A DNA stretch of 64,000 nt from an uncultured Gammaproteobacteria bacterium (GTDB lineage Bacteria > Patescibacteriota > Microgenomatia > Woykebacterales > RBG-16-39-9b). The DNA lies in assembly GCA_964349395.1 (NCBI GenBank), contig CAYGGA010000003.1, positions 1,424 to 65,423 of the forward strand, given 5' to 3'. Made by a program: the position numbers and the translations under genes. The notes beneath the pieces were generated by a model that was given only the letters and a program-made list of their open reading frames with translations, searched no databases and had not been told where the DNA came from. Below, in pieces: positions 10,390-30,659 of the stretch; position 1 is the stretch's first letter, and the number at the start of each line of letters is the position of its first letter.

Positions 10390-11520
10390 TTAACTAGTTG
10401 TTTTTTCCTCTGCTAACACGTCTAACAAAACTTTTCTTGTCTCTCTTGAAAATTTTTCCCAACTATACTTTTTGACCTGATCTTTTCCAAGACGAATGTA
10501 TTTTTCCCTGATCTCCTTCTCCTTTAGTAAAATATTGATTCTGGTTATTAAATCTTCTTTGTCCTGTGGGTCAAAATACATGGCCGCCTCACCGTAAACT
10601 TCTTTAAAGACAGGAATATCACTAACCAAAACTGGCAGACCGACACTCATAGCCTCAAGACCTGGTAAACCAAATCCTTCCTCAAAGGAGGGGAAAACAA
10701 AAGCAGTGGCTGTTTGATATAAATCTTTTAGATCGCTATCCCCAACTCTTCCCGTAAAAACAATTTTCTCAAGAACCCCATTGTCAATTGCCTGCCTTTT
10801 AAGACGTCTAAGAAATTCATTTTCAGGACTTACTAAAACAATCTTCACCCCTTTTAGAGAGCCAGCTACCTCCACTAATAGTTCCAAGTTTTTGTGGGGA
10901 GAATTATTACCAACTGCTAAGATAAAATCATTTACATGATACCTTTCTCTAACACTAGCTTTTTCTTCCTGAGTTAATTTATCCCCAAAAGTCTCATCCG
11001 CTGCTTCGGCAATCACGGCGATACGATCTTCAGGTAAACTAAATTTTCCAATTAATTTCTCCTTAACTACCAGACTGGGAACAATTATTTTCTCCGCTTT
11101 TCTTACTGCTCGATTTAAAACTACTTGGTAGCTAAGATGTTTAAAATTATACAAAAGCGGATTTCTTAGAGTCGCTTTTTGTCCTTTAAACTCAGTGATG
11201 ATCAGGTCATGAATCATTACCACCATTTTACCCGGGTAAAAAACAGGGATATTTAGATGGGGAACAAAAAGTAAGTCTAGCTTTTCCCTAGAGAAAATTC
11301 TGGGGAGGAGAATTTGTTCTGATATCGAGTACCATCCTACATTGGCAACAACTTTTTTGAAGTTAGGCTGTTCCGGGTGGTACTGATCAAAATTGTCTTC
11401 CTTTAAAAACACAACGTAATTTGTTTCAGAGTCAATTTTTTCTAAGTTCCTAAGCAAATTTACTAGGACTCGACCAATACCAAAATCACCATAGAACCGT
11501 GCGTCAATACCAATCGTCAT
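10390..11520 (-). CDS. Glycosyltransferase family 4
   Basis: GT-B C-terminal motif FEEGFGLPGLEAMSVGLPVLVSDIPVFKEV. Confidence 0.7.
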   Translation of the reverse strand: MTIGIDARFYGDFGIGRVLVNLLRNLEKIDSETNYVVFLKEDNFDQYHPEQPNFKKVVANVGWYSISEQILLPRIFSREKLDLLFVPHLNIPVFYPGKMVVMIHDLIITEFKGQKATLRNPLLYNFKHLSYQVVLNRAVRKAEKIIVPSLVVKEKLIGKFSLPEDRIAVIAEAADETFGDKLTQEEKASVRERYHVNDFILAVGNNSPHKNLELLVEVAGSLKGVKIVLVSPENEFLRRLKRQAIDNGVLEKIVFTGRVGDSDLKDLYQTATAFVFPSFEEGFGLPGLEAMSVGLPVLVSDIPVFKEVYGEAAMYFDPQDKEDLITRINILLKEKEIREKYIRLGKDQVKKYSWEKFSRETRKVLLDVLAEEKTTS

Positions 11521-12812
11521 ACCATCATCTCCACCACTTCTTGCGCCAGTTTTATAGAATAGTTTTGGCCTCTATCCCAAGGATAGACCTGACCCATATT
11601 AGCTAAATAAATATTTTTGATTCCCGTGGTGTGAGGTGGAATATGGTCCTTGTACCCAATCTTGACAATTGGTTGTGCGTAGGGGGCTCTAAATAGTTGA
11701 TAATCTTCTACCCAATCTTCCTTAAAACTAGGATTTATCTTGGCTAGATATGGGACATATTTTTTAAAGGTTTCTTCTGGAGTTAGTTTAAATCTAGGAT
11801 CAGTAGTAGCTAAGTAATTACCCAAGTAAATTAAATGTTTGCCGCCGTAATCAGACGTGGGCATAAAATTGGTATGCTCAACAAATACCAAAAAAGGAAA
11901 AGACTGGTCAGAAATATTTAGCCAGTAATAGTCACTTAACTTTCTTTTCAAAGTCAGAACCAAAGTCTGGGCCCCAAAATAATCATCCCAATGGTATTTT
12001 TCCTTGAAACTAGGACTCAGTTGGGGTGTGAGTTTGAAAAACAGATTAGTTGGCAAGGTCACTAAGACCTTGTCAAATTTATAGTCCTTTTTGTCAGTGG
12101 TCACAGTTACTTCACCATCTTTCTCCTCAATCATAATTGCGCTTTCCCCGAAGACCATGTTCCCTCCGCCTTTTTTAATTCTTTCTTCCAGAGCGACATA
12201 CAATTGGTAAAAGCCATTTTTTAGGTAACCTAGTTTTTGGGTACGGCTAAAGACTCGAGCCCAAAACCAACTCATGGTAATCTGGTCATAGTTTTTGTCA
12301 AATTTACCTTTCAGCAACGGGTCAAAAATTACCTGATAAGCTTCTTTACCGATTGCTTTTTTAAGCCAGATTGCGGCAGTAATGTTTTCGAACTGGTGAT
12401 AATTCTTAGTTAGTTTTAGGTAAGCTAAAACTAGTCCCAAACGAACACGATTAAAAGGTTTTAAGGGTGAGAATTTTAAAACAGTGGCAGGGGAATCAAG
12501 TGGGTAAATTTCACCTTTATATAAAGTACCAGTTTTCCCTGGTTTCCAAATTAGTTTATTTTCTAATCCAAGTTCCTTTATAAGACTCACAATGACTGTG
12601 TCGGTTTGAAAAATATGATGGTAAAATTTTTCGAAGTAACTGTCACCGATTTTCAGAGAGGTGAGTAGACCACCGACTGTTTCTTCCTTTTCAATGACGG
12701 TGACTTCATGACCTTTTTCTTGCAAACGAAGGGCAGCCGTCAGTCCTAAGGCCCCACTGCCTAGAACACCAATTTTGAGCTTTTGCGAAAAACGAGCTTC
12801 GCTTCTCTTCAA
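11517..12812 (-). CDS. FAD/NAD(P)-dependent oxidoreductase (amine-oxidase / UDP-galactopyranose-mutase-like fold)
   Basis: Rossmann dinucleotide motif KIGVLGSGALGLTAALRLQEKGHEVTVIEKEETVGG. The likely start is a TTG at 12812-12810 preceded by GAGGGG, which abuts the stop of the upstream gene. The track ATG at 12893 would overlap that gene by 85 nt. Confidence 0.55.
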   Translation of the reverse strand: MKRSEARFSQKLKIGVLGSGALGLTAALRLQEKGHEVTVIEKEETVGGLLTSLKIGDSYFEKFYHHIFQTDTVIVSLIKELGLENKLIWKPGKTGTLYKGEIYPLDSPATVLKFSPLKPFNRVRLGLVLAYLKLTKNYHQFENITAAIWLKKAIGKEAYQVIFDPLLKGKFDKNYDQITMSWFWARVFSRTQKLGYLKNGFYQLYVALEERIKKGGGNMVFGESAIMIEEKDGEVTVTTDKKDYKFDKVLVTLPTNLFFKLTPQLSPSFKEKYHWDDYFGAQTLVLTLKRKLSDYYWLNISDQSFPFLVFVEHTNFMPTSDYGGKHLIYLGNYLATTDPRFKLTPEETFKKYVPYLAKINPSFKEDWVEDYQLFRAPYAQPIVKIGYKDHIPPHTTGIKNIYLANMGQVYPWDRGQNYSIKLAQEVVEMMV

Positions 12813-13774
12813 GATTTCCCCTCTGAAAGTTTGGTTACCGAGATATTCATTTTCCAAGCATAGTAAAAACCCACCAGAGTAATCGGCAGCCATTGGGTGA
12901 AGTGAGTTAAGATCGCGTAAGAAAAAGCGATATTTCTATCCACTCCAAAAAAGACGGCGACCTGCGTGAAGAAAAACTCAAATGTTCCCAAATACCCTGG
13001 TCCTGAGGGTATGAGAGTAGAGAGACCTACCACCAAAGCAATGAGGGCAGCTTGATAAATACTAAGATCTAAATTAAAACTTTTGGCAATTAGCCAAAAC
13101 ATTCCCGCTTCAATCATCCAAATCACCAGAGAGGCAAGCAAAACTAGAGCCACTGATCGGATAGATTTCAAAGCCTTAAGACCTTCCAAAAAAGCTACAG
13201 CCGAGGCGAAAGGGCGTTTCAATCTTTCTTGACGTTCAACCCAAACAAAGATTTTTTTGACAGAAGTTGTTTTTTCGATCAGGGGGAGGAGAAAAACTCC
13301 TACCGCAACGACCCCGAAAAGTAGACTAGCTAAAAGCAAGGGGGTCTTCAAATCTTCTGGAAAAGGGAGCACCATGATAAGTAAGCTAAATAAGATAACT
13401 AGCGAGAGGCCATCATAGAGTCTTTCTCCAAATATCACGGCCAGCATGCTGCTACGAGATACCCCCAGAGTGCGCCCCGTGATATGCGCGCGGACAACCT
13501 CCCCAAGTCTCAAAAACAAGACGTTGTTAGACATGTACCCGATTGCTAAATAAGGAAAGAGACTACGTACCCTTACTTCTTTAAATGAAAGAAGCAGGTA
13601 TTTCCATCTCAAAGTCCTAAGCCAAAAACCAAGAAAATGAAAAGCTACCGATACTAAAACTAGCGGGTAGTTCACTTTTGTAAAAGCAACCCCCAAAGCC
13701 TCAAAATTTATCTGGCGCACCACTAAAAAAAGAAAGAAAGCGCTCACCACTAAGCCAACTAGAACTCTTTTCAT
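12809..13774 (-). CDS. Flippase-like membrane protein (UPF0104 / lysylphosphatidylglycerol-synthase TM-domain family)
   Basis: About 8 predicted TM helices. Conserved basic/Gly segment YLAIGYMSNNVLFLRLGEVVRAH typical of the MprF-TM/UPF0104 family. Confidence 0.5.
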   Translation of the reverse strand: MKRVLVGLVVSAFFLFLVVRQINFEALGVAFTKVNYPLVLVSVAFHFLGFWLRTLRWKYLLLSFKEVRVRSLFPYLAIGYMSNNVLFLRLGEVVRAHITGRTLGVSRSSMLAVIFGERLYDGLSLVILFSLLIMVLPFPEDLKTPLLLASLLFGVVAVGVFLLPLIEKTTSVKKIFVWVERQERLKRPFASAVAFLEGLKALKSIRSVALVLLASLVIWMIEAGMFWLIAKSFNLDLSIYQAALIALVVGLSTLIPSGPGYLGTFEFFFTQVAVFFGVDRNIAFSYAILTHFTQWLPITLVGFYYAWKMNISVTKLSEGKS

Positions 13775-14520
13775 TTAAGACTCCTTTGAGATTTTCCAGG
13801 ACCCATATATCTCCACCACAAAAGAATCGTCTCAAAAAAGGCTTTGATGATGACTTTTGGATTGGCTCCAGATTGCTTACCAGCCACTCGGGGATAATGA
13901 TTTACCCCTACTTCTTTCACACTTTTACCCATAATCTGAGCTTTTAGCATAATTTCAGTATTTACTAAAGCGCCAATGGTTTCAAAATTTATCTTATCTA
14001 AAACTTCACGATGGTAGATTTTGAAAGCACAATCAATATCTCGAAGTTTAACACTAAATAATGTAATCACCATTAAATTGTATGTGCGTCCGATCATCAC
14101 GCGGTACCATGGGTCTTGGCGCACTGTTCTAAAACCAGCAACAATGTCAAAACTTCTAACATATGGTAACAATTTGGTAATATCTTTGATCTCAAACTGT
14201 CGATCTGAATCCATAAAGAAAACTAGGTCGCGTGTGCTCGCCCTGAAACCAGTAGTGAGAGCAGCTCCATAACCCAAATTCTTAGGGTGAGAGATTAGTC
14301 TCACTCTTCCTTCTTTCTTGACAAAATCCTCTACTACTTCTTTGGTGTTATCCGTACTACCATCATCAACCACAATAATCTCGTAATCAAGTTTAAGCGA
14401 ATTTAGGACCAAAACTGCTTCTGGTAACAGTATGGGAAGATTTTTTCCTTCATTATGAGCTGGCAAAACTACCGAGATGGAGAGGTGTTCGGCTGCTGAT
14501 TTAGTGTTTTTGTCTTGCAT
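13771..14520 (-). CDS. GT2 glycosyltransferase, Dpm1/GtrB-like polyprenyl-phosphate sugar synthase
   Basis: ISVVLPAHNEGKNL...IIVVDDGSTDNT DxD region, about 250 aa, C-terminal amphipathic segment. Confidence 0.7.
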   Translation of the reverse strand: MQDKNTKSAAEHLSISVVLPAHNEGKNLPILLPEAVLVLNSLKLDYEIIVVDDGSTDNTKEVVEDFVKKEGRVRLISHPKNLGYGAALTTGFRASTRDLVFFMDSDRQFEIKDITKLLPYVRSFDIVAGFRTVRQDPWYRVMIGRTYNLMVITLFSVKLRDIDCAFKIYHREVLDKINFETIGALVNTEIMLKAQIMGKSVKEVGVNHYPRVAGKQSGANPKVIIKAFFETILLWWRYMGPGKSQRSLK

Positions 14521-14548
14521 TCAGAAATATCATCTTAGTGTGCAGAAC

Positions 14549-17095
14549 TTAATAATTAGCCAATAAAACTAGCATACCAGCTCTTTTTAAGAGCCGCAAT
14601 CCTCTCTCATCGCGGGCAAATTTCTGGAGCAGGACTTCCCCGCGATCAGCTGAGGTAATCAAAAGTTGGAGTTTTTCACTGGTAATTGTCTTTTCAATAT
14701 CATAGTTGTCGACTTCCTGGTACTTACCTTCAGTATAATAACCAGCCACTTTGGTACTCACCCCGTTTAGTAGCAGTAAATTTTGGCTTCTTCCTTGGTA
14801 TTCAGGACTTAGAATTAGGTCAGCCAAATCTTGGTTGGCATTAGGAGGCGTGATCTTGGTTGTGACTGATGGTAAATTAATATACAGAGGCAACGAGATT
14901 ATCAAAATGACTGGGATAGCGTACTTTACCAGTTTTCCAACGCGCAGATGGTTGAGAGAATGCTTTTGGTAATATTTATAAGTAAGATACACAATAAGTA
15001 GTGACAGCAAGGGTGTCAAAGCGAAAATATTCGGTAAGTGACGGAAATAATTTTGCATAAAAATTACCGGGTCATAAATAACGCTGTAGAGATGCCATGG
15101 TAAAAAGATCAGTAAAAATACGGTTAGATTGACATTGATAAGCAACCCTTTCTTAAGTAGAGTTCGATTCCAGTTTAGTAGTAATAAAAGGTAAATTGGC
15201 AAAAATAGAATAGTAAGTAAACCATCAGTTAGGCTAGCTAACCCCAAAGAGACGCCACTGAGAAGAAAAAGGTGACGGTGTTTTTTACTAAGTTGTAAGG
15301 TATAAATAGAAAGCAAAATAAAGAATGCTGCCATAATTTCCGTATTGACACTACGAGTGAGATAGACAAAAGGTGTGATAAACAGACTTAGCAGGGCTGT
15401 CACAGTAGCCCAGTAACGGTTAATTAGTTGCCTCGCAATAAGATAAGTGAGGAAAATTGCCCCCACTCCAAAGAGGGCCGGCAAAAAACGAATGATAAGA
15501 TTTGGTACGCTCAAATAGAGATGAATAATATTGGTTGATAACCAGTAAAACAAAGGTGGGTAGGACAGATAAGTTGCGCCCTGGTAAGTAGGTACCAGCC
15601 AGTTAGTATTGCGATACATTTCACGAGCAACGGTTGCCAAAACCGCTTCGGAGCTAATGACATTAGTCGATCCCAACCTGTAGAAAATAACAAAGATTGC
15701 TGAGAGTAAGACCGAAACTGCCGGAATAATCTCATACCAATTTAGAGTCTCTTTTTTTTCTCCGTCTGCTAAAACTACCCCTTCTTTCATCAACCGCTCA
15801 AACACCATGGTAAAAAGTAATGCTAAAAAGATGTAAAACCAAAAAAATTCTAAGTTGTAGGAGTAGAAGATTCCCCCAGTCCAAATTCCGATCAGGCCAC
15901 TTAGGAATCCAATGGAGTAAATTTTGACAGTTTTATTATGACTGTGACGAATAAGTTTAATAAGTGATTTAAGAATTAGAATGACAAAAGCTAAATAGAC
16001 AGACAGACCAACCAACCCAGTCTCTGTGATAATCTCAAACCAAACAGAGTGAGCCGGAATTCTCACATCCGCGGGGTCAACTCTAGAGTGTTCCATCCCC
16101 GTTTCACTCTGGCGAAACTTTTCAGAAAAACTACCATAACCAATTCCGAAAATTGGGTTTTCTGTAAAAAGCTCAACTTCACCCCGAAGCAATAGGTAAT
16201 GAGCCTTGGTAGAAGGTTCTTCAAGGTCAACTACGGATTTTACCCTATCAAGTAAAGAACGTCCGGTAGCATTGGAAACAAAGATTACCAGTCCTGATAT
16301 GGCAATGGCCCCAAGTAAGGGTAAAATCTTGCGGTAATACCCCGACTTGATTCCTAAAATTAATATGACCAGACTACCTACTATTAAGGAAAGTAGCCCA
16401 CTTCGGGAAAAGGAGTAAAGAATGACAAAAGAGATCAAGAAATAAGCTAACCACCAGAAAGCTTTTGGCCAGAATTTTTTTTCGAGCCATGAAAAAGCTA
16501 CCACCATGGGGGCAATCATGCTCAGGTAAGCCGCAAAATGATTAGCGTCAAAAAATGTTCCGGGTAAGCGTATATAGTCTCCCCCACTTAGAACTCCAGG
16601 AAGATTATGTCCAATAAAGGTAATTACTACATACTGAAACAAACCATAAAAACCAACTACAAGACCAAAAAGGACAAAAGCTCGCACCAATTTGATTACA
16701 AAAAATCTCGATGGCAAAAGAATCGACCTCATCAAAATGTATAGACTTATCATCGCTGTGTAGAAAGCGAAAAGCTCGACACTGGCACCAAGATTACCAC
16801 TTTGCATGAGTGATACTAATCTTATCAACCAGAGTACTCCTAAAAGGCGGAAAACATTGTCCCCTGAAAGTTCTTTGACTGCTTTAGTGAAATTTAGTGT
16901 CTTTTTAGTGATACCCTGAAAAATAAAGTAAACTCCTGCCAAGATTAGAAAGAGCAATAAAATTCTTACGGGCACAATTTTGTTATAGAGGATACTCATA
17001 CGAGAGTGGTCAGCTAAGGGAATTAAGACTACAAAAAGTAGCAGACTGTATTGGAAAAATTCTAAAAAGTTTGTAATTTTAGGCAGTTTTGGCAT
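14549..17095 (-). CDS. Fusion membrane protein: N-terminal O-antigen ligase/polymerase-like (Wzy_C) domain plus C-terminal GT-C (PMT/ArnT-like, GT39/GT83) domain
   Basis: N-terminal half is multi-TM with the YSFSRSGLLSLIVG motif (Wzy_C SRG signature) and a large loop. C-terminal half has a loop-1 acidic motif SSEAVLATVAREMY...YPPLFYW, as in ArnT/PMT. 848 aa. Confidence 0.5.
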   Translation of the reverse strand: MPKLPKITNFLEFFQYSLLLFVVLIPLADHSRMSILYNKIVPVRILLLFLILAGVYFIFQGITKKTLNFTKAVKELSGDNVFRLLGVLWLIRLVSLMQSGNLGASVELFAFYTAMISLYILMRSILLPSRFFVIKLVRAFVLFGLVVGFYGLFQYVVITFIGHNLPGVLSGGDYIRLPGTFFDANHFAAYLSMIAPMVVAFSWLEKKFWPKAFWWLAYFLISFVILYSFSRSGLLSLIVGSLVILILGIKSGYYRKILPLLGAIAISGLVIFVSNATGRSLLDRVKSVVDLEEPSTKAHYLLLRGEVELFTENPIFGIGYGSFSEKFRQSETGMEHSRVDPADVRIPAHSVWFEIITETGLVGLSVYLAFVILILKSLIKLIRHSHNKTVKIYSIGFLSGLIGIWTGGIFYSYNLEFFWFYIFLALLFTMVFERLMKEGVVLADGEKKETLNWYEIIPAVSVLLSAIFVIFYRLGSTNVISSEAVLATVAREMYRNTNWLVPTYQGATYLSYPPLFYWLSTNIIHLYLSVPNLIIRFLPALFGVGAIFLTYLIARQLINRYWATVTALLSLFITPFVYLTRSVNTEIMAAFFILLSIYTLQLSKKHRHLFLLSGVSLGLASLTDGLLTILFLPIYLLLLLNWNRTLLKKGLLINVNLTVFLLIFLPWHLYSVIYDPVIFMQNYFRHLPNIFALTPLLSLLIVYLTYKYYQKHSLNHLRVGKLVKYAIPVILIISLPLYINLPSVTTKITPPNANQDLADLILSPEYQGRSQNLLLLNGVSTKVAGYYTEGKYQEVDNYDIEKTITSEKLQLLITSADRGEVLLQKFARDERGLRLLKRAGMLVLLANY

Positions 17096-19363: not shown

Positions 19364-19375
19364 TTGAGACCTCTT

Positions 19376-22398: not shown

Positions 22399-22428
22399 TT
22401 TACATTAGGATCAGACAACCTGGCAATG

Positions 22429-23109
22429 TTAGTTGGTAAAACGGTACTTAACTAGTGTCCAAAGAGCTGCCACGCCATCATTCCATCTAATTTTCTTGCC
22501 TTCCCCTTTGGTACGTCCATTATATTGGATCGGTACTTCGTAAATTTTTACACCTTGTTTGGATAATTTGGCAGTGATCTCTGGGCAAAAATCAAACCGG
22601 TTACATTTTAGTTTTTGGTTTTTTAAAATTTCACTTTTAAAAACTTTATAGCAAGTGGCCTCATCCGTTATATTAATGAGATAAAGGACGTTAGCAGTCA
22701 TTGTTAAAATTTTGTTTGCTAACCAGTTGGCAAGGGCCATTCCTTTAATTGACCCTTTAAATCTGGACCCATAAACTACCTTGGCCCTCCCATCCTCGAT
22801 CGGTTTTACCAGTGAGTAGTAGTCTTGAGGGTTATACTCCATGTCCGCATCTTGAATCAGGATGATGTTCCCACTTGCTTCCTTAATACCGGTTCGAATC
22901 GCGGCCCCTTTGCCCATATTTTTGGTGTGGCTCACAACTTTGAGACTTTTTAGTTTAAACTTTTTTAGCTCCGGCAGGGAGCCATCAGACGAAAAATCAT
23001 TAACAACAATAATTTCTTTAGGGATTTTTACTTTATTAACTGCCTCAATCACCCGCCCAATATTTTTCTCTTCGTTATAGACAGGGATGATAACTGACAG
23101 ACGTGTCAT
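22429..23109 (-). CDS. GT2 glycosyltransferase, Dpm1/GtrB-like
   Basis: LSVIIPVYNEEKNI...IIVVNDFSSDGS. 226 aa. Confidence 0.7.
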   Translation of the reverse strand: MTRLSVIIPVYNEEKNIGRVIEAVNKVKIPKEIIVVNDFSSDGSLPELKKFKLKSLKVVSHTKNMGKGAAIRTGIKEASGNIILIQDADMEYNPQDYYSLVKPIEDGRAKVVYGSRFKGSIKGMALANWLANKILTMTANVLYLINITDEATCYKVFKSEILKNQKLKCNRFDFCPEITAKLSKQGVKIYEVPIQYNGRTKGEGKKIRWNDGVAALWTLVKYRFTN

Positions 23110-25034
23110 TGTGTCTCTCTTAGATAGAGTTTATCGGAGTGGAGTAAGTCTTTTGAGAAGTCATGTTTATCAATAACGTCACCCAGGTAATAAAGATGGT
23201 AGTCAGTTTTTAGCTGCGGATTACCATCCAAGATCTTCTGCCAATTTTCTGAAGCGATGGCCCTTCCGAAAACATAAGTTCCGATCTTTTTTACATTTAC
23301 ATACTCAAAATCAGTGACGGTAAATTGGTTAAAGTCCTTAAAAGTAAATCTGTGCCCCAACACAGAGATCAAGTCATTTTTCTCATTCGAGGTGCTAAAG
23401 ATAATTGAGTTTAAAGGTAACTGGCGGTCTATCTGAGCATAGATTGGGTCGACTTTTATAAATGCTGACTTATACCGATTCCAACCCTCATAGATAGTAG
23501 TTGGAGCACCTAAAACAATAAAAAGGACCATGGTTGAGGCCAAAAATACTTTAGCCCCTCTTCTTTTTTTATTGTTTTCCCAAAAATATCCTATTACCAA
23601 AGCAGAGATAACAGCCAGAGCAACTTGTGTTGGTATCAGGGATCTCATACTAATATTGTTATCATCTAAGGCCTTAACAAAGAAAATAACCCAGACAGGT
23701 ACGTAAAGAAAAAGCCCCCAGTAAAGAAGTTCTGTTTGGTAAAGCTTCTTTTTGTAAAACACCCAAGCGCCCAAAACAAAAGTAATAAACAATGGCCCAA
23801 ATTCGATCAGGAAAAAAAGGATTGCGGTCAAGGCCATATTTAGGGGACGGTAGTACCAAATATTATTGGGCAGAAACCAAAAGACGTTAGAGTGGAAAAT
23901 AAAATAGTGCCCTTTTTCACCCCCAATATAGAGGAGAAACATAGGTAAGGCTAGAAGAACTCCTATCCCACCAATGATAAAATTGTCCCTAATAAGAGAC
24001 TTTAGCTTTTCTTTTCTCTGCAAGAAACGGACTAAAAAATAAGCAACGTAAATCACCGCCACGGTCATGAAGACAAAGAAAGTGTAGCCTACCATTGCCG
24101 CTAAAATAAGGGCAATAAGGATTTTGGTGAGTAGCTTCTTCCTTTCAGAGGAGATGATCAAGAAGTAAAGTGGAATCACTAGTAAACCACCAAAAAGGTG
24201 TTGCGAAACCCAATAAAACAATGTTATGGGAGCCGAGATTTGGGTATGGATCGCAGGGTTCAATCCTACCCAATCTGTCCACCACTCTAAATGAGTATCT
24301 TTTATGCCTTTCCATTGCGCCAAAAAATATTCCAAACCAGAAGAAAAAGTAAATGCAAAAATCAACACAAATCTTTCCAAATAGGTACTAAAGATTTTAG
24401 TGGCAAGCAAGTGTATTAACCAGAGCATTAGGACAATCAAGATAACGGTATGAATAAACCAGCTCTCGTTTACCAGCACAAAGTTGTTGGTAAACTTAGT
24501 TAGCAGCCCACTAGGAATATGATTGAAGTAGTAAATTGTCATGTCACTGATTGGGAAGTTATAAAAAAGGGGTTGCTTAGGACTAATGGCAACCGAGGTG
24601 GTCTTTTGCATTCTGGGCTTGTCATCCCCAACCGGCAAAAAACCTTGAGGTAAACCTAATTTCCCAATCATAATCAACAGAAAAAAGCTGACTAGTAAGA
24701 AATAACCACCCCACTTGAATAGATCCCCAAAAGGCGATTTCTTGGTTTCTTTAAATGGGAAAACCTGATCACTATCAATCAAACTTTTGGGGAATTTTCT
24801 GCGAAAAATTTCAGCTAGACCCAAGGCCCCAAGAGCTAAAATAATCCAGCTTAACCCATTCAAAAGATCCAACTGGGCTAGAAACAAATAATAAAAAGGA
24901 GCTAGCAAAAGGGATAAAAGTAGGATAAAAAACGGATTTTTACTAAATTTACCAGTGAAAAGTCTCCCGAGGGCAAGACCAGGAAGTACGTAGATAGCAT
25001 TAATAAAGAGAAAAGCCAAAAGGTAATTGGTCAT
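23106..25034 (-). CDS. Large polytopic membrane protein, function unknown (possible polymerase or GT-C-like)
   Basis: More than 12 hydrophobic segments. No motif I recognise. 642 aa. Confidence 0.4.
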   Translation of the reverse strand: MTNYLLAFLFINAIYVLPGLALGRLFTGKFSKNPFFILLLSLLLAPFYYLFLAQLDLLNGLSWIILALGALGLAEIFRRKFPKSLIDSDQVFPFKETKKSPFGDLFKWGGYFLLVSFFLLIMIGKLGLPQGFLPVGDDKPRMQKTTSVAISPKQPLFYNFPISDMTIYYFNHIPSGLLTKFTNNFVLVNESWFIHTVILIVLMLWLIHLLATKIFSTYLERFVLIFAFTFSSGLEYFLAQWKGIKDTHLEWWTDWVGLNPAIHTQISAPITLFYWVSQHLFGGLLVIPLYFLIISSERKKLLTKILIALILAAMVGYTFFVFMTVAVIYVAYFLVRFLQRKEKLKSLIRDNFIIGGIGVLLALPMFLLYIGGEKGHYFIFHSNVFWFLPNNIWYYRPLNMALTAILFFLIEFGPLFITFVLGAWVFYKKKLYQTELLYWGLFLYVPVWVIFFVKALDDNNISMRSLIPTQVALAVISALVIGYFWENNKKRRGAKVFLASTMVLFIVLGAPTTIYEGWNRYKSAFIKVDPIYAQIDRQLPLNSIIFSTSNEKNDLISVLGHRFTFKDFNQFTVTDFEYVNVKKIGTYVFGRAIASENWQKILDGNPQLKTDYHLYYLGDVIDKHDFSKDLLHSDKLYLRETQ

Positions 25035-25090
25035 GATCTAATCATATTCGTTTGTGGTTAATGTCTGCAAACTCATTAATTCTTGCAGAA

Positions 25091-26569
25091 TTATAGTTTT
25101 TTTAACAAGGTTGTACCCTCTCGATCAAAAATCACTTCCCACTCGGGCAAGGTTTTTACGTAGTCGATCAGCTTGAGAAACTCCTCTTTGGTCTGTGGAC
25201 GCCAGTGAAAGGCGTTCGCTGACAGAAGTAAATACTCTGCTCTTTCAGGAATAGCATACTCTTCGGGCTTCGCCTCGGGAGGTAAATCCTCTTCGCGGTC
25301 ATCAGCAGCGTTGGAAGGATCAGGATATTTGAGGATGTGATCACGGTGGGAAAGGTGAGGCTGCAGGGCGGACTGAGTCCCAATACTTGCCTGAGGTGGA
25401 ACCAATTTTAAGGCTTCAAAAATTGCCCCACTTCCCTGAATAGGTATGTAAAAACCAACTTTCAAAAGGTTTAAAAGCGGCATTTGGTAAACTATAGTCA
25501 CTGCCAAAGTGAGGACTAACATGAGACTCACAACTATCTGAATATAACTTCTCTCCACGACATCCGGCAGTTTAAAAGGGGGGAGTATTTTACCTAGATT
25601 CACTAACCCAAAAATAGCTCCATAAGCTAGTATCGGCCCTTGGTTAGAAGAGTAATGCATCCAAGGAAGATGACGTTGCAAAGTGTCGTTTAAAAATCTT
25701 TCTGCCAAAAAAGGACTCAGAATCAGTAGGAAAGAAGGTGACAGTAATGGCAGAAAAGCAAAAGAAGCAAACATACTGATCATAGTTCGTAATTTTACTA
25801 ACGGGGTGAAAAAATAAACGACCGCTCTCACCGGATTTAAAATTGCGTTAACTATAATCTGCGTAGGTGAATCTCCTAGTTGAGAGACAAAATAACCATA
25901 TTTCCTCCCTACAAAATAGGGCATTATTTTATAAATCACCACATAGAAATAAAATAGGGAGATAAATAAAGTAGCCGCTCCAATTAGGTATTTTCTTTTG
26001 AAAAGTAGATAAACTCCTAAGACCATCCCAAATAAGGGGATATCTTCCTTGCAAATTAAGGCTAGTACCAACATTGGCCAGTAAAGAGCCCATTTTTCCT
26101 CCAAGACTGCGTAAATAGTCCAGGCGATAAAAACAATTGAAAAAGTGGCTAAGTGAAAAGGAAAGATAGTTCCTGCTTGAAAACCAAAGTAAAGTAAGTA
26201 ACCAATTATGAAAAGGATAGCCCAAATTTCTTTTACCTTGAGGTGTTTCTTAAAAGTTAGGTAAATCGGGATAGCACTTAAAACAATTGATAGGGTTTGC
26301 AGCAAAAGTAAAACTATCACTGAATCCCAGAGCCAGTACAGGGGTGCGATCAAAACTTCGATTAGCCCAAAATGGTCACCAAAAGCATTGTGGTCTTTGA
26401 AAGAGCTAATTGCCAATCTCCCCTGGGACAAAAACCAGATCTGCTGGTCATAAATGCCTAAGTCCGAATCAGTAGTGGAGTAATTGAAGTGAAGCCGGAG
26501 AATCAAAAATAAATAACCAATAAAAAAGGTTGTTAACACAATCCAAACTGGTTTATTGAGTCTTGCCAT
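25091..26569 (-). CDS. DUF2079-family polytopic membrane protein (paralog)
   Basis: GDHFGLIEVLIAPLYWLW corresponds to the HFHPILVFLAPIYWIW block of 20917-22398. Same size and TM layout. Confidence 0.5.
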   Translation of the reverse strand: MARLNKPVWIVLTTFFIGYLFLILRLHFNYSTTDSDLGIYDQQIWFLSQGRLAISSFKDHNAFGDHFGLIEVLIAPLYWLWDSVIVLLLLQTLSIVLSAIPIYLTFKKHLKVKEIWAILFIIGYLLYFGFQAGTIFPFHLATFSIVFIAWTIYAVLEEKWALYWPMLVLALICKEDIPLFGMVLGVYLLFKRKYLIGAATLFISLFYFYVVIYKIMPYFVGRKYGYFVSQLGDSPTQIIVNAILNPVRAVVYFFTPLVKLRTMISMFASFAFLPLLSPSFLLILSPFLAERFLNDTLQRHLPWMHYSSNQGPILAYGAIFGLVNLGKILPPFKLPDVVERSYIQIVVSLMLVLTLAVTIVYQMPLLNLLKVGFYIPIQGSGAIFEALKLVPPQASIGTQSALQPHLSHRDHILKYPDPSNAADDREEDLPPEAKPEEYAIPERAEYLLLSANAFHWRPQTKEEFLKLIDYVKTLPEWEVIFDREGTTLLKKL

Positions 26570-26584
26570 TCCAACTATTGTATA

Positions 26585-27706
26585 CTACTTCAAAAGGCGG
26601 TTAAAGACTGCGCTTGTTTCCTTCGCTGTTTTCTCCCATTTAAATGTGTCAGCTAAGTCTTGTCCCTTTTTCACTAAAGATTCTCTTAGTTTCCCATTTT
26701 TCAAAACTTCGCCGACACTGAGAGCTAGTTTCTCGGGATTGGTGACTTCGGTAAAATAGGCTGCCTTCCCTAAAAGCTCACCTAGAGAAGCCCGCTTTGA
26801 GGTAACCACGGGTACACCCGCTTTCATAGCTTCAAGCGGAGGAAACCCAAACCCTTCGTAAAGTGAGGGGTAAACAAATACTTTAGCATGCTGATACAGT
26901 GCGGGTAGATCAGTTTCGTCTATAAATCCGGGGAAAATCACTTTATCCTTTAATTTGTTTTTAATAATTTCAGTGATAATTTCTCTAAACGAAGACTGAC
27001 CACCTTTAGTCTCTTCACTCTTGCCACCTAAAACTAGCTTTAAATCCAAATTGCTGTTACTTATTAGGGCAAAAGCTCTGACCAACCCCAAGACATTTTT
27101 ATGAGGGCTAAAACCACCAATGTAAAAAATGTAATCGCCGCTAATTTTATACTTCTTCAAGGTCTCCTCTTTCCCCTTTTTCTCAAAATTATCTTCGATT
27201 CCTTCATAAGTGACGGTAATTTTTTCTGGATCAATATTTAGAATTTGAGAAATGTCTTTTTTCGAGTTTTGTGAAACAGTTAAAATATGAGTTGCTTTTC
27301 TGAGGGCGGCTTCTTGCAACTTAAAGTAGAGCACTTGTCTCGCCTTTAGAAGGGGATTAGAACTTAAAATCATTTCCGGGAACTTCCAAGGAATAACGTC
27401 ATGTAAAGTTACTACACTTAAAGGGACGCAGCTAAAAAACTCAGTATTATCGGGATGAAAAACCAAATCCAAGTTTGTCCCTTTAATAAGTCGGTTGAAG
27501 CGGAGGTGATCAGTTAAAACTTTTTTAGGTGGGAGCGGGAAAACTGAGGCCAAATCACCAAAACTACTAACTTTCTCAACATTGTCAGTAAGTAACACAT
27601 AGCTGTTAGTTGTGTCTACTTTTAATAGTTCCGAGACGAGGTTGCGGGTGTAGCGCTCTAAGGCTTTATTCGTCCCCAAAACTCGAACATCAATACCAAT
27701 CCTCAT
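26585..27706 (-). CDS. Glycosyltransferase family 4
   Basis: SLYEGFGFPPLEAMKAGVPVVTSKRASLGELLG. Confidence 0.75.
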   Translation of the reverse strand: MRIGIDVRVLGTNKALERYTRNLVSELLKVDTTNSYVLLTDNVEKVSSFGDLASVFPLPPKKVLTDHLRFNRLIKGTNLDLVFHPDNTEFFSCVPLSVVTLHDVIPWKFPEMILSSNPLLKARQVLYFKLQEAALRKATHILTVSQNSKKDISQILNIDPEKITVTYEGIEDNFEKKGKEETLKKYKISGDYIFYIGGFSPHKNVLGLVRAFALISNSNLDLKLVLGGKSEETKGGQSSFREIITEIIKNKLKDKVIFPGFIDETDLPALYQHAKVFVYPSLYEGFGFPPLEAMKAGVPVVTSKRASLGELLGKAAYFTEVTNPEKLALSVGEVLKNGKLRESLVKKGQDLADTFKWEKTAKETSAVFNRLLK

Positions 27707-27741
27707 ACCTACAAGTATAGCTAAATATTGGCGATCACGCT

Positions 27742-29064
27742 ATGATTTTAACTACCTTTATGTGGGAAAAACTAAAAGAAAATAAACTGGTTTTAATCCC
27801 TAGCTTGATTGGTCTTGTTACCCTTTTTTATGGCTTGGGAAGTCATTACCAAAAATTGGTCAGTGATGAAATGACCTTTTTTCTGAATGCCGATTTTCTC
27901 AAAGGAGACCCGTACTACCCTTACCTTATTCTTCCTGAAGGGATAGGCACTACTCACACTCTACTGCCTTATCTAATCGGCTTCTCACTCGAAATTTTTG
28001 GTTACACAATCTTCGGTCTTAGATTTGTTCCAGCTCTTTTTGGGCTTTTGGGAATTGCAGTTTTTTTCTTCTTGGTAAAAGGTATGGTCAACAAACACAG
28101 ATCCGCTTTGCTAGCCGCCACTTTATTGGCGCTTACTCATTGGTATATCGCAATTTCCCGAGTTGCGATTGAACTCTCTGAAATCCTCTTTTTTACGATC
28201 CTAAATCTATATTGTCTATCTTTGTTTTTAAATGTGGATCCCTCTACTGCCACTATTGGCAACTTTAAAATTAAGAAAAAGTATATCTTTATCCTCCTAA
28301 CTGGTCTGACCTTTGGACTAGTCCAACATACCTATCAATCAGCTCGAGTTTACTTACTTTTTTATATCCTTTTCTTCCCAATTTATTGGTGGGTGAAAAA
28401 AGTCCGCTTGAAAGAAATGGTCGTTTACAGTCTCCTTTTTGCCTTAGGTTTTATAATTACCCTCTCTCCTCTCATTTTTGCATACCTGCAGCACCCTGAA
28501 AGTTTTGACTCTCGGAAAGGGGAACTAGTCTTCTACCAAAACCTAGGCCCACAAGATTTGCTTTGGTCTCTCAAAGAAAGCACTTTTAGAACTTTAGGAA
28601 TGTTTCATTTTAGAGGTAGTGATGTTAGCTGTTACAATGTTCCCGCTAGACCCATGCTTGACCCTTACTCCAGTTTTTTCCTAATAATTGGCTTTGTCCT
28701 CGCTCTTAAAAATTTTAGAAGGGAAGTCAATTTAGTTTTATTACTTTTCTTTGCGGTAGCTTTAGTTCCCAGTATTATTTCTTATTGGCCAGCCGCCCCA
28801 CACGGCCTAAGAGCATCTGGAGTCATCATTCCGACCATGGTCTGGGTAGGTTTGGGACTAGAAAAAACCAGTCAATTATTTAAAAAGTACCAATGGATTT
28901 TTCTAATCTTCGCCCTCTTAATAATTGGCTATTTAAATCTAAAAACTTATTTTGTTGATCAGGCATCCTTACAAACAGACTGCTTTAGAATTGACGTGGG
29001 GGATTTCCAAAAATATAAGGATCAGTTCTTGGAGTTTACAGAAGGTGTAAAATATATCCGATGA
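27742..29064 (+). CDS. GT-C glycosyltransferase (ArnT/PMT-like, GT39/GT83)
   Basis: Loop-1 motif KLVSDEMTF after TM1, then multiple TM helices. 440 aa. Start uncertain because only 35 bp separate it from the divergent gene. Confidence 0.5.
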   Translation: MILTTFMWEKLKENKLVLIPSLIGLVTLFYGLGSHYQKLVSDEMTFFLNADFLKGDPYYPYLILPEGIGTTHTLLPYLIGFSLEIFGYTIFGLRFVPALFGLLGIAVFFFLVKGMVNKHRSALLAATLLALTHWYIAISRVAIELSEILFFTILNLYCLSLFLNVDPSTATIGNFKIKKKYIFILLTGLTFGLVQHTYQSARVYLLFYILFFPIYWWVKKVRLKEMVVYSLLFALGFIITLSPLIFAYLQHPESFDSRKGELVFYQNLGPQDLLWSLKESTFRTLGMFHFRGSDVSCYNVPARPMLDPYSSFFLIIGFVLALKNFRREVNLVLLLFFAVALVPSIISYWPAAPHGLRASGVIIPTMVWVGLGLEKTSQLFKKYQWIFLIFALLIIGYLNLKTYFVDQASLQTDCFRIDVGDFQKYKDQFLEFTEGVKYIR

Positions 29065-30041
29065 AGAAACTTCTAAAAGTTGGAGTGGTCGGGGTTGGTG
29101 TCATGGGTGCTGAGCATGCTCGTGTCTACTCTACACTAAAAGGCTGCCAACTAGTGGGGGTTTATGATAACCATAAAAGCCTTGCAAAAAAGGTGGCTAG
29201 AAAACTAGGTGTTACTTCCTTTCAAAATTTGGATGATTTACTGAAGGAAGTAAAGGCAGTAAGCGTGTGCACCCCAACAACCACCCATTTTGATGTTGCC
29301 TCCAAAGCTCTAAACCAAAGGGTCGCGGTTCTGATCGAAAAACCCATCGCTAATACCCTTGAAGAGGCGGAGAAACTCATCAAGCTAGCCAAGATAAATA
29401 AAACGACCTTGTCCGTGGGTCACATCGAACGATTTAACCCGGTTATTGAGACTCTTAAAAAGAGATTAGAGAAACAAAAAGTCATCTCAATAAATATTAC
29501 TAGGCTGGGTCCTATACCACCAAGAATTAAAGACGTCGGAATTATATTAGATCTTGGAACTCATGATATTGACTTAATCAGGTATTTAACTAAAAGTCAT
29601 TTTGAGAAGATAAATTCAGTTTTTTCTAGCAAATCGAATAAATTTGAAGATGCGGCCATTTTAAGCTTTCAGATGAAAAACAAGACTATTGCCTCAGTAA
29701 TTACCAATTGGTACACTCCATATAAAGTCCGACAGATCGAGGTGGCGACCATGGACAAACTTTTGGTGGGTAATTTGATGAGTCAGCAAGTAGTGGAGTA
29801 CTCCAACTACGATGGTTCCGGGTCTTATGTAACGAAAAGTTTGCCTGTTAAATATACTGAACCTTTATATGAAGAGTTGAATAGTTTTACCCAAGCAATC
29901 AGTAGTAACAAAAAGCCACGAGTCTCGGGTTTAGATGGCCTGGAGGCGGTTAGAGTGGCTCTTTACTGCCAAAAACTAGTTGCGGATAAGCAACCAAACA
30001 AAGTCACGGAAAGCCAAAACCGGAGTCCAAAGTTTAACTGA
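29061..30041 (+). CDS. Gfo/Idh/MocA-family NAD(P)-dependent sugar oxidoreductase
   Basis: KVGVVGVGVMGAEHARVY Rossmann motif and EKPIA motif. Confidence 0.7.
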   Translation: MKKLLKVGVVGVGVMGAEHARVYSTLKGCQLVGVYDNHKSLAKKVARKLGVTSFQNLDDLLKEVKAVSVCTPTTTHFDVASKALNQRVAVLIEKPIANTLEEAEKLIKLAKINKTTLSVGHIERFNPVIETLKKRLEKQKVISINITRLGPIPPRIKDVGIILDLGTHDIDLIRYLTKSHFEKINSVFSSKSNKFEDAAILSFQMKNKTIASVITNWYTPYKVRQIEVATMDKLLVGNLMSQQVVEYSNYDGSGSYVTKSLPVKYTEPLYEELNSFTQAISSNKKPRVSGLDGLEAVRVALYCQKLVADKQPNKVTESQNRSPKFN

Positions 30042-30659
30042 GCTTGGTTTTTGGTTAGGATAATGAGTCACTTTCACTGAACTAATCTTGTACCCGTACC
30101 TAGAAGCCTTGATTAGCCGTTCTGCTTCCCCAAATACACTGGTTGATTTAATCTGGATTTTTTTATAAATGGAGGTTTTGAAAAGTTTGGCACAACCAGC
30201 ATCGTAAGGGTCAAAACCAAAAAACAACTTGATGAGGAGATTAAACCCCCAAGACATCGTGTGCCGAAAAAGATTGTACTCTTTACTTATCCTCTGGGCC
30301 ACCACAATGTCATTACCCTGCTTCAGCTTCCGAATCATACCAGGCAGAATGGTCATCCTAATTTCATTGTCTGCCCCATTGAAAAAGGTAGTTTTCCCTA
30401 AAGCATTTTTGTATAAGTCCTTTAGACTCGGCTCAATACCCAAATTAACAGGGTGAGTAATAATTCTTATTTGGGGGTATTTTTTTCCAAGCTTAGTGAG
30501 AAGCAAAGGTGTATTATCTCTACTACCATCATCCACAACCAAGATTTCATAACTAATCTTTAATTTATCCGCGACCTTAACTGCAAGAAGAACGGCTTTT
30601 TCAATATTGTCTTCTTCGTTATAAGCGGGGATCGCTATTGTCAGATCCAAGTTCTTCAT
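29976..30659 (-). CDS. GT2 glycosyltransferase, Dpm1/GtrB-like
   Basis: LTIAIPAYNEEDNIEKAV...ILVVDDGSRDNT. Confidence 0.7.
   Translation of the reverse strand: MKNLDLTIAIPAYNEEDNIEKAVLLAVKVADKLKISYEILVVDDGSRDNTPLLLTKLGKKYPQIRIITHPVNLGIEPSLKDLYKNALGKTTFFNGADNEIRMTILPGMIRKLKQGNDIVVAQRISKEYNLFRHTMSWGFNLLIKLFFGFDPYDAGCAKLFKTSIYKKIQIKSTSVFGEAERLIKASRYGYKISSVKVTHYPNQKPSSVKLWTPVLAFRDFVWLLIRN

Follow-up and report, generated by a model that had tools for sequence, protein, structure and literature searches.

Bacteria of the Patescibacteria, or Candidate Phyla Radiation (CPR), are abundant, almost wholly uncultured and attached to other cells, and their genomes are about 1 Mb in size. Surface chemistry is central to the biology of these bacteria owing to their attached life, yet it is essentially uncharted. 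What, then, does such a cell make with a long stretch of DNA that carries little else than glycan genes? The stretch in question is a 64-kb piece of contig CAYGGA010000003.1 (hereafter the window, whose coordinates are used throughout), and the region under study is its positions 10390-30659, in which a sequence-only reading had seen an extracytoplasmic glycosylation system built on polyprenyl-phosphate-sugar donors. In our judgment, based on sequence families and predicted structures, this region is rather likely to be the core of a cell-envelope glycan factory of a CPR bacterium in which two routes are combined. The best-supported reading of it is a multi-module form of a known mechanism, that of a lipid-phosphate-sugar synthase working with a membrane glycosyltransferase of the GT-C type (PMC8035078, PMC11127046).

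Pfam scans of every open reading frame (ORF) of at least 120 aa revealed that the window, with a GC content of about 39%, consists almost wholly of genes for glycan biosynthesis. About 30 glycosyltransferase (GT) genes are encoded in total, including 13 of family GT4 and eight of family GT2 (one of the latter cut by the window end), together with sugar aminotransferases, dehydrogenases, acetyltransferase-like proteins, methyltransferases and a series of polytopic membrane proteins. A search of the whole window gave no tRNA gene and no Rfam match. The names on homologues of its proteins are Patescibacteria group, Candidatus Woykebacteria and candidate division WWE3, which marks the source as a CPR bacterium whose sequence was assembled from metagenomic data. 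The region itself holds three short GT2 enzymes resembling dolichol-phosphate mannose synthase (DPMS), GtrB and ArnC, four GT4 enzymes interleaved among the other genes (at 10390, 17079, 18239 and 26585, from Pfam), a flippase-like protein resembling the transmembrane (TM) part of MprF, a flavin adenine dinucleotide (FAD)-dependent oxidoreductase and six GT-C-type membrane proteins; every gene that the sequence-only reading had named here was found again at its coordinates by the ORF and Pfam analyses. Thirteen genes run in one direction from 27706 down to 10390, with gaps of at most 56 nt or with overlaps. This tight co-directional packing, together with a gene order shared by many independent metagenomic contigs whose proteins are 27-62% identical to those of the window, argues that the cluster is not a product of chance.

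Can the short GT2 enzymes supply polyprenyl-phosphate sugars? The three proteins, named here by family and length, are GT2_249 (13771..14520, minus strand; PF00535, E 3e-33), GT2_226 (22429..23109, minus strand; 4.6e-33) and GT2_227 (29976..30659, minus strand; 2.2e-22). The top PDB sequence matches of all three are ArnC, the Pyrococcus Dol-P-Man synthase and GtrB, in agreement with the earlier description of them as Dpm1/GtrB-like. GT2_249 aligns with ArnC (9hwj, 1.3e-22) over residues 14-217, which correspond to the whole soluble domain, GT2_226 with Pyrococcus DPMS (5mlz, 3.9e-19) and GtrB (1.3e-14), and GT2_227 with GtrB (1.4e-13) within its N-terminal 125 residues. The best NCBIfam matches of the three are ArnC, AglJ, PpgS, PgfS and Dol-P-hexose transferase, with AglJ (1.8e-30) and PpgS (1.6e-18) matching GT2_226 and PgfS among the best matches of GT2_227 and GT2_249. 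In an alignment of 13 GT2 enzymes, the three of the window and ten orthologues from related loci, D42, D89, D149 and E177 are invariant. The D-x-D motif reads D-S-D in GT2_249, D-A-D in GT2_226 and G-A-D in GT2_227, and a C-terminal R..G.SK-type motif is degraded in GT2_227; because of these two changes the activity of GT2_227 may be weak or altered, or perhaps lacking. No hydrophobic segment was found in any of the three, no gene for a small membrane protein is encoded between them, and only GT2_249 has an adjoining membrane protein, so that they resemble the soluble type represented by PpgS, GacI and human DPM1 rather than GtrB. Thus, GT2_249 and GT2_226 are clear synthase candidates and GT2_227 is a doubtful one. 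A further GT2 had been placed at 63593; the ORF there is cut by the window end and has no Pfam match, and its relationship to GT2 is seen in 29% identity (E 3e-8) to the C-terminal half of GT2_226, which makes it by sequence the C-terminal half of a fourth short GT2.

If GT2_226 provides a lipid-linked sugar, which protein receives it? The gene overlapping it by 4 nt in the same direction (23106..25034, minus strand) encodes a polytopic protein of 642 aa, which the sequence-only reading had listed as unknown. Relatives of this gene were found in seven independent contexts: the window; L011; L004/L005/L008; L006/L007/L010 (Woykebacteria); L009; L012; and L013 (L numbers denote related loci). 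In all seven it adjoins a gene for a DPMS-like GT2 of 225-236 aa. The two genes are arranged in L011 as they are in the window, and elsewhere they are convergent with overlapping ends. An adjacency that outlasts inversion is strong evidence that the two form a functional pair. Together with the conserved neighborhood of the Wzy_C/PMT fusion gene and GT2_249 described below, it lends independent support to the earlier proposal that synthases and GT-C enzymes are paired.

What kind of protein is the 642-aa partner? Even at an E value of 10, neither Pfam nor NCBIfam gives a match to it, and its distant relatives likewise lack a Pfam family; comparisons of its family with DUF2079 and PMT profiles by hhalign were not significant, and a profile search of PDB returned no match. 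Therefore, its assignment rests on structure and gene context. The AlphaFold2 model (predicted local distance difference test, pLDDT, 86.8; predicted TM-score, pTM, 0.91) gave ten Foldseek matches with E values of at most 1e-3, all of them GT-C enzymes (STT3, 4.2e-6; PglB, 4.6e-5; AftA), and the next four, just past this value, were also of the GT-C type (ArnT, AftA, Pmt4). The model thus predicts a GT-C-fold protein. From the helix positions and charge distribution, three extra N-terminal TM helices would precede the canonical GT-C TM1 (residues 103-123), and the loop following TM1 would face outward as the equivalent of GT-C loop 1; this loop contains G136-D137, which is invariant in the family, and D138, which is near-invariant (at least 90%). 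Another invariant loop, E250-W-W-x-D254-W, lies in a segment modeled with low confidence (pLDDT below 50 at residues 256-264) and is probably mobile. The family is small and has so far been found mainly in CPR genomes, with 22 homologue clusters at 90% identity in a collection of 5.8 billion proteins, 312 members in a profile search of 1.84 billion cluster representatives and only three loci among GTDB species representatives.

A similar answer was obtained for the two DUF2079 proteins that had been noticed earlier, DUF2079_493 (20917..22398, minus strand; PF09852, 4.7e-57) and DUF2079_492 (25091..26569, minus strand; 1.1e-54). They share 30% identity, and all the residues invariant in the family are kept in DUF2079_492. 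The AlphaFold2 model of DUF2079_493, built with 53 diverse homologues, is of high quality (pLDDT 93.7, pTM 0.93), and its 14 Foldseek matches in PDB with E values of at most 1e-3 are all GT-C enzymes, namely STT3 (1.8e-5), DPY19 (2e-5), PglB and ArnT and, after these, ALG9, AftA and PIG-M. By this model DUF2079 is a GT-C-fold protein, in line with the earlier suggestion that it may be a new family of this type. The significant matches of both models, this one and that of the 642-aa protein, have a Foldseek probability of 1.00. A transporter function was considered for both proteins and rejected: matches to the major facilitator superfamily, ATP-binding cassette and other transporters all have E values above 0.1 and probabilities below 0.2. 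The sequence-only reading had named a transporter fold as an outcome that would speak against its proposal, which therefore withstands this comparison. Among the 53 sequences, D44 and Q50 are invariant and D49 nearly so, directly after TM1 (residues 14-36); elsewhere D78-H79, H151, K186-E187 and R308 are invariant too. Since the N-terminus is rich in Lys and Arg, the positive-inside rule would place this first loop on the outside. Residues 104-203 align with the PMT_2 core of the fusion family by hhalign (probability 79%, E 1.6e-5). PDB sequence and profile searches gave nothing for the DUF2079, 642-aa, 848-aa, 514-aa and 440-aa proteins. In Pfam, PF09852 is a member of the GT-C clan. In the searched literature, neither a paper mentioning DUF2079 nor a description of its function was found. 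Beyond CPR, it lies inside glycan clusters with GT4, methyltransferase and YfhO genes in two of three contexts sampled.

That STT3 and PglB are the best Foldseek matches of both models raises another explanation: the DUF2079 proteins, the 642-aa protein or both may use undecaprenyl-diphosphate oligosaccharides, acting as oligosaccharyltransferases, ligases or polymerases, and the short GT2 enzymes would then be ordinary cytoplasmic chain extenders. The excess of GT-C proteins over synthases would also fit, as would the invariant E-W-W-x-D-W, which superficially resembles the WWDYG motif of STT3/PglB. However, the E-W-W-x-D-W loop is located midway through the membrane domain and WWDYG in the C-terminal domain, a different position in the fold, and STT3 leads ArnT, DPY19 and AftA by only one to three orders of magnitude in E value. 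In addition, the 642-aa and GT2 genes are strictly adjacent in seven of seven contexts, a hallmark of paired synthases and GT-C enzymes, and the GT2 enzymes are nearer to DPMS, GtrB and ArnC than to any solved chain-extending GT2. We consider this explanation quite unlikely.

The other GT-C-type proteins of the region carry recognizable PMT-like domains. The largest of them (14549..17095, minus strand; 848 aa) is a fusion of an N-terminal Wzy_C domain of the WaaL/PglL/Wzy type (PF04932, 4.2e-17, residues 217-368, 62.7 bits against a cut-off of 31.7) and a C-terminal PMT/ArnT-like GT-C domain (1.6e-15, residues 499-673, 57.8 bits against a cut-off of 22.7). We found no description of such a fusion in the searched literature. 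Its 39 full-length homologues, whose source names are limited to candidate division WWE3 and Patescibacteria, share R176, D183, H186, R231, H299, H349, G360 and G363 as invariant residues. The arrangement H349-S-x9-G360-x-x-G363 fits the ligase motif H[NSQ]x9Gxx[GTY], and the Wzy_C half is by its sequence a candidate ligase, polymerase or O-oligosaccharyltransferase. Hydropathy suggests that four TM segments and a charged linker stand between the periplasmic loop of the Wzy_C half (H299 and H349) and loop 1 of the PMT half (E483); the two loops would thus face outward, which fits polymerization or ligation coupled to side-chain addition. GTC_514 (19376..20920, minus strand) is a PMT_2-like GT-C protein with a C-terminal soluble domain (PMT_2, 1.2e-5; 26.0 bits, just under the cut-off of 26.1), and GTC_440 (27742..29064, plus strand) is a PMT/ArnT-like GT-C protein without a large C-terminal domain (PMT, 4.6e-9; 36.6 bits against a cut-off of 22.7).

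Do these proteins keep the acidic residues expected of loop 1? A loop-1 DE motif had been ascribed to three of them. It is present in GTC_514 (D39-E40, with D39 invariant in relatives and orthologues) and GTC_440 (D42-E43), but the fusion reads S482-E483, and in its family the Glu is kept in 38 of 39 members and the preceding Asp in 18 of 39. When D44 of DUF2079 and D137 of the 642-aa family are included, loop 1 retains an invariant Asp in each family except that of the fusion, which keeps Glu only, and the GT-C assignment survives this comparison, which the sequence-only reading had itself proposed.

Serine 482 in place of the loop-1 Asp, an Asp missing from 21 of the 39 family members, could also mean that the multiplicity of modules is partly a matter of decay. 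By this explanation neither the PMT half of the fusion nor GT2_227 has any catalytic activity left, both being paralogues that serve as scaffolds or are in the course of being lost, and fewer modules work than are encoded. The altered motifs of GT2_227 agree with it, as does the location of this gene in an insert that is missing from L011. Nevertheless, the PMT half has E483, P514 and R536 as conserved or even invariant residues throughout the family and all 39 homologues keep the full fusion, which indicates selection on that half, and GT2_227 retains the other invariant Asp and Glu residues. Decay has some plausibility, although we hold it to be the less probable account.

How are these genes held together over evolution? 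A metagenome scan with an alignment of the fusion protein yielded 37 loci, onto whose ORFs the window proteins were mapped; when the FAD protein alone served as the query, no relative was recovered. A co-directional core is present in at least seven lineages in the order GT4_373, DUF2079_493, GTC_514, (DUF2079_492), GT4_374, GT4_387, Wzy_C/PMT fusion, GT2_249, (LPG_synthase_TM), FAD oxidoreductase and GT4_376, where brackets mark genes that are not always there. Neither this cluster nor the 642-aa family was found described in the searched literature. The orthologue of GT2_249 lies at most one gene downstream of the fusion gene in 11 of 12 closer relatives. GTC_514 directly follows DUF2079_493 in ten distinct loci, and from this arrangement the two may act successively or as a heteromer. 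As for the GT4 enzymes, GT4_373 (26585..27706, minus strand; Pfam, 6e-35) is the first gene of the co-directional block and precedes DUF2079 in L009, L013, L018, L019 and L029; GT4_387 and GT4_374 (17079..19363, minus strand, starting at 17079 and 18239; Pfam and synteny) are always immediately upstream of the fusion gene; and GT4_376 (10390..11520, minus strand; Glycos_transf_1, 1e-28), the last gene of the core, has an orthologue after the FAD gene in L018, L019, L026 and L029.

The FAD-dependent oxidoreductase (11517..12893, minus strand; Amino_oxidase, 1.1e-32) has the amine-oxidase/phytoene-desaturase fold and belongs to the uncharacterized family PRK07233 (NF005560, 467 bits against a cut-off of 252); its best PDB matches, PF1083, protoporphyrinogen oxidase and phytoene desaturase, reach only about 1e-7. 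The ORF as listed shares 85 nt with the flippase-like gene upstream of it. With the family model and the Rossmann motif both starting near residue 40, its true start probably lies further downstream, near residue 38. In all seven distinct loci that reach far enough, the FAD gene comes after GT2_249, either directly or past the flippase-like gene. This coupling suggests that the probable task of the enzyme is to modify the lipid-linked sugar or the polyprenyl carrier. It also invites a different explanation, by analogy with the pairings of FAD enzymes and GT2 of the CrtN/P/Q and HpnB/E types, namely that GT2_249 and the FAD enzyme, with or without the flippase-like protein, make a glycosylated or otherwise modified isoprenoid lipid, such as a dolichol-like saturated carrier or a glycolipid anchor, and not a transient donor. 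The superfamily of the FAD enzyme, its weak matches to HpnE, CrtI and protoporphyrinogen oxidase, all acting on lipids, and weak matches of GT2_249 to CruG and HpnB would accord with this. All of these matches are, however, far under the family cut-offs, ArnC is closest to GT2_249 over its whole length, and the pair of genes always stands between the GT-C fusion and GT4 genes. We regard an isoprenoid product as improbable.

The flippase-like protein of 321 aa (12809..13774, minus strand), announced in the sequence-only reading as MprF-TM-like, matches LPG_synthase_TM (1.1e-50, 173 bits, residues 4-302) and TIGR00374 (3.9e-21). It consists of the TM domain alone, without the C-terminal aminoacyl-phosphatidylglycerol synthase domain, and is thus a stand-alone flippase-like protein and not MprF. 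Its gene overlaps that of GT2_249 by 4 nt, and it is by sequence a candidate flippase or membrane anchor for this adjoining soluble enzyme. Literature searches with PF03706 and TIGR00374 were uninformative. Two Wzx/MOP proteins are encoded elsewhere in the window (41909..43363, minus strand, Polysacc_synt_3 1e-59 and MOP flippase 9.7e-45; and 62323-63600, Polysacc_synt 1.3e-16), and together with the LPG_synthase_TM protein they make up the flippase candidates for a lipid-monophosphate sugar.

An outline of the proposed process is as follows. In the first route, which is read from family membership, GT4 and GT2 enzymes in the cytoplasm would build oligosaccharides on undecaprenyl diphosphate. 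This route would start with the small polyprenyl-phosphate glycosyl-1-phosphate transferase (2762..3412, minus strand; Bac_transf 1.2e-62, TIGR03025 5.5e-77), an enzyme type that initiates glycans linked to undecaprenyl diphosphate; the Wzx-type flippases would export the product, and the Wzy_C-type domain would polymerize or ligate it. In the second route, which begins at the inner face of the membrane, the short soluble GT2 enzymes would use nucleotide sugars to attach single sugar residues to polyprenyl monophosphate. The lipid-linked sugars would then be flipped, with the MprF-TM-like and Wzx proteins as candidates, and at the outer face the six GT-C-fold proteins (the PMT half of the fusion, GTC_514, GTC_440, the two DUF2079 proteins and the 642-aa protein) would move them to the growing glycan made by the first route. 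At least two modules can be distinguished: module A would comprise the Wzy_C/PMT fusion, GT2_249 and the FAD oxidoreductase, with or without the flippase-like protein and with the DUF2079-GTC_514 tandem upstream, and module B the 642-aa protein with GT2_226. As GT-C proteins outnumber the two or three synthases, several of them probably share one donor and form different linkages, by analogy with mycobacterial arabinan and mannan. Systems with several pairs of synthase and GT-C have precedents (PMC8035078, PMC11127046). The sequences and models show the domains and folds, the conserved acidic residues and the conserved pairing and order of the genes; we infer the outward position of the acidic loops, by hydropathy and the positive-inside rule, and also the nature of the donor, the flipping step, the transfer at the outer face and the preference for a polysaccharide over a protein as main acceptor.

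Several observations weigh against this proposal. The NCBIfam scores of the three GT2 enzymes are all far under the equivalog cut-offs, so that neither sugar nor lipid specificity can be read from the matches, and the C-terminal TM helices of GtrB, ArnC and Pyrococcus DPMS are missing from all three. The first Asp of D-x-D is absent from GT2_227, alone among the 13 aligned enzymes, and the loop-1 Asp from the PMT half of the fusion. The structural matches of the DUF2079 and 642-aa models have TM-scores of 0.4-0.5, and those at the top, STT3 and PglB, are oligosaccharyltransferases with diphosphate-linked donors. As for flipping, no GtrA family match occurs in the window, and the LPG_synthase_TM gene, found in the window, L011 and L018 only and missing from most relatives, is optional.

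Is the acceptor a polysaccharide or a protein? The phosphoglycosyltransferase, a ManC-like nucleotidyltransferase whose gene adjoins it (3457-4584; NTP_transferase 1.4e-39), the two Wzx flippases and the many glycosyltransferase genes of the window indicate a polysaccharide context. A polysaccharide acceptor also fits a recurrent companion, a membrane-anchored, AlgX-like SGNH/GDSL protein (34139..35350, plus strand; Lipase_GDSL_2 1e-9, ALGX 7e-4), whose homologues adjoin related clusters in L004, L012 and L018. The same enzymology would nevertheless serve a protein O-glycosylation machine like PMT, Pgf or PglL, with secreted or surface proteins as the main acceptors, the targets being TasA-like proteins dependent on SipW, lamin-tail domain (LTD) and RTX proteins or Ser/Thr/Pro-rich linkers. 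PMT-family matches are present in the cluster, a tasA/sipW-like operon lies 1.4 kb from it, and the SGNH protein itself has a Pro/Ser/Thr-rich linker at residues 188-217. It is established that the Wzy_C family includes O-oligosaccharyltransferases of the PglL type. In L004, L005 and L012 the pair of 642-aa and GT2 genes stands beside sortase, PMT-like and surface-protein genes. Streptococcal systems of GtrB with GT-C enzymes glycosylate Ser/Thr-rich disordered regions (PMC12041528) and adhesins (10.1101/2022.10.10.511621). On the other hand, four GT4 enzymes in the conserved core, together with a phosphoglycosyltransferase and Wzx in the window, point to a polysaccharide pathway; the fibre operon is outside the conserved synteny of related loci; and the AlgX-like partner suggests a polymer. 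Proteins as the main acceptors are therefore possible but unlikely.

With a polysaccharide as the preferred acceptor, how does the cluster compare with known systems? Three-component or multi-component systems include GtrA-GtrB-GtrC of Shigella and Salmonella, CsbB-GtcA-YfhO and GtlA-GtlB of Bacillus and Listeria, CsdAB, CsdCD and CsdEF with CflA of Lactococcus and GacI-J-K-L of Streptococcus pyogenes (PMC8035078, PMC5836110). In these as in the present cluster, a GT2 synthase of polyprenyl-phosphate sugars is genetically paired with a GT-C enzyme, and one organism may have several pairs; GacI is a precedent for a soluble GT2 without TM helices that has a separate membrane partner, and Wzx-type flippases may replace GtrA. 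Unlike these systems, the cluster lacks a GtrA-type flippase, its GT-C partners are DUF2079, the unclassified 642-aa family and the Wzy_C/PMT fusion instead of GtrC, YfhO or GT39/GT83 enzymes of known function, six GT-C proteins share one operon-like block with two or three synthases, and an FAD oxidoreductase is tied to one of the synthases.

In mycobacteria, arabinogalactan, lipoarabinomannan and lipomannan are assembled from decaprenyl-phosphate arabinose and mannose donors with DprE1/DprE2 and the many GT-C enzymes EmbA/B/C, AftA-D and MptA/B (PMC11127046). The likeness lies in many GT-C enzymes using few lipid-monophosphate donors outside the membrane, in the involvement of a flavoenzyme, there DprE1 acting on the lipid-linked sugar, and in AftA being among the structural matches. 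DprE1 has the vanillyl-alcohol-oxidase fold. The FAD enzyme of the cluster instead has the amine-oxidase fold, no phosphoribosyltransferase is encoded, the GT-C families are others and the host is a CPR bacterium with a very small genome. The ArnC-ArnD-ArnE/F-ArnT pathway resembles the cluster in the ArnC alignment of GT2_249, in a final transferase of the ArnT/PMT_2 type and in the tailoring, by ArnD, of a lipid-linked sugar before its use; it differs in that the present lineage has no lipid A, that ArnE/F and ArnD homologues are lacking and that the NCBIfam scores are far under the cut-offs for ArnC and ArnT. Like Ppm1/Dpm1 with PMT and the Pgf and GtrB-PgtC systems (PMC12041528, 10.1101/2022.10.10.511621), the cluster combines DPMS-like GT2 enzymes with PMT-family GT-C proteins carrying loop-1 DE (514 and 440 aa) and has candidate Ser/Thr-rich acceptor proteins nearby; unlike them, it is dominated by polysaccharide-type genes, and its PMT matches are weak, two of three passing the Pfam cut-off. 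Finally, the three-component GT136 pentofuranose system of Citrobacter (PMC11127046) is a precedent for recognizing a new GT-C family by its AlphaFold model, by a groove that is conserved and by a genetic link with a lipid-sugar synthase, although it has a synthase dependent on phosphoribosyl pyrophosphate, a MATE flippase and the O-antigen of a Gram-negative bacterium as its setting and was verified experimentally.

Thus, the mechanism class of a lipid-phosphate-sugar synthase with a GT-C enzyme is well established in other bacteria, and it is the enzymes and their arrangement that are not well known. Earlier CPR genome papers contain multiple annotations of "dolichol-phosphate mannosyltransferase" (PMC4736985, PMC6031116). 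That a bacterium with a small genome gives a whole 64-kb window to glycan genes, with up to nine GT-C-type enzymes, adds to the interest of its surface. DUF2079 gains a functional assignment at the level of the predicted fold, the 642-aa protein and its strictly paired DPMS-like GT2 are two genes well suited to reconstitution in a heterologous host and are candidate founders of a new CAZy family, and with the conserved operon the envelope glycans of different CPR lineages could be predicted and compared. A more far-reaching proposal, which we offer only tentatively and think unlikely to hold as a whole, is that the nine-gene core and the 642-aa/GT2 module use polyprenyl-monophosphate sugars to assemble, for the most part outside the membrane, a major glycopolymer of the CPR envelope, as is the case for mycobacterial arabinan and mannan. 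Three GT-C families without a characterized member (DUF2079, the 642-aa family and a 638-aa family) would take part, the Wzy_C/GT-C fusion would couple polymerization or ligation to side-chain addition, and the amine-oxidase-fold flavoenzyme would remodel the lipid-linked sugar or carrier as a non-homologous analogue of DprE1.

The 638-aa family lies outside the region. It is represented by a polytopic protein at 36487..38403 (plus strand), a probable GT-C enzyme by paralogy and a weak PMT_2 match, and by paralogues of 679 and 698 aa (45468-47507 and 47554-49650, both minus strand). Paralogy among them has E values of 1e-17 to 1e-130, and they have no Pfam or NCBIfam family; PMT_2 is matched weakly (E 0.0022), and hhalign against the PMT domain gave a probability of 57% (E 1.1e-4). 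D88 is invariant within a loop-1 DED motif. By these sequence features the three are probably a further GT-C family, which raises the number of GT-C-type proteins from six in the region to as many as nine in the window. The 638-aa protein is linked to the cluster in L009, L011 and L013; a homologue in L013 bears a precomputed DUF6311 label that our own scan did not reproduce. The 642-aa protein was considered as another paralogue and rejected, the two being separate families. Next to the 638-aa gene is a GT4 gene (35347..36552, minus strand; 401 aa, Pfam 1.3e-36), relatives of which are directly upstream of the 642-aa family gene in L009 and L013 and in the same block as it in L011, with GT4_373 and DUF2079_492 between.

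In comparison with L011, the window has an extra insert of about 7.6 kb (27742-35350). It begins with GTC_440 and continues with a UDP-GlcNAc 3-dehydrogenase-like oxidoreductase of the GFO/IDH/MocA type (29061..30041, plus strand; Pfam 2.7e-33; NF040723, 286 bits, under the cut-off of 450), GT2_227, a HAD phosphatase, an ATP-grasp enzyme, an acetolactate-synthase-like enzyme dependent on thiamine diphosphate and the SGNH protein. The phosphatase, the ATP-grasp ligase and the thiamine-diphosphate enzyme (474 bits to PRK08322, under the cut-off of 509) occupy 30619-34000 on the minus strand and, from their families, may make an unusual sugar substituent, for instance a two-carbon branch like that produced by YerE-type enzymes.

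Related loci show further neighbors of the 642-aa/GT2 pair. In L004, L005 and L012 it is accompanied by a sortase, a PMT/PMT_4TMC protein of 405 aa and a protein of 223 aa in which two segments are hydrophobic; further along, an AlgX-like gene comes after that for a protein without a Pfam family, which has an EPDE motif in loop 1 and 10-11 TM helices; L004 and L005 also carry a TIG-domain protein near the pair. A stretch of L008 (CAZXPY010000001.1) contains an LTD protein, a sortase, PMT, the 642-aa family and YfhO and has a CPR/Patescibacteria-like content.

On the other side of the region, the tasA/sipW-like operon (6100-9012, plus strand) starts with a camelysin/TasA-like protein with a SipW-dependent signal peptide, followed by a SipW-type signal peptidase (TIGR02228, 81 bits against 51.85) fused to a second SipW-type signal peptide and an LTD, and ends with an RTX-repeat protein. 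Between this operon and the cluster lies a stretch of about 1.35 kb (9012-10390) with a GC content of about 50%, as against about 39% for the genome. No frame holds a credible ORF, also when genetic codes 4 or 25 are applied. Neither a tRNA nor a tmRNA is present, Rfam gives nothing at the gathering threshold (at E values up to 1, only a chance-level microRNA match, E 0.52), and none of the related loci compared is similar to the stretch. Its fold z-scores are modest, -1.4 on the plus strand and -2.2 on the minus strand, and candidates for its nature are a structured non-coding RNA and a decayed foreign gene.

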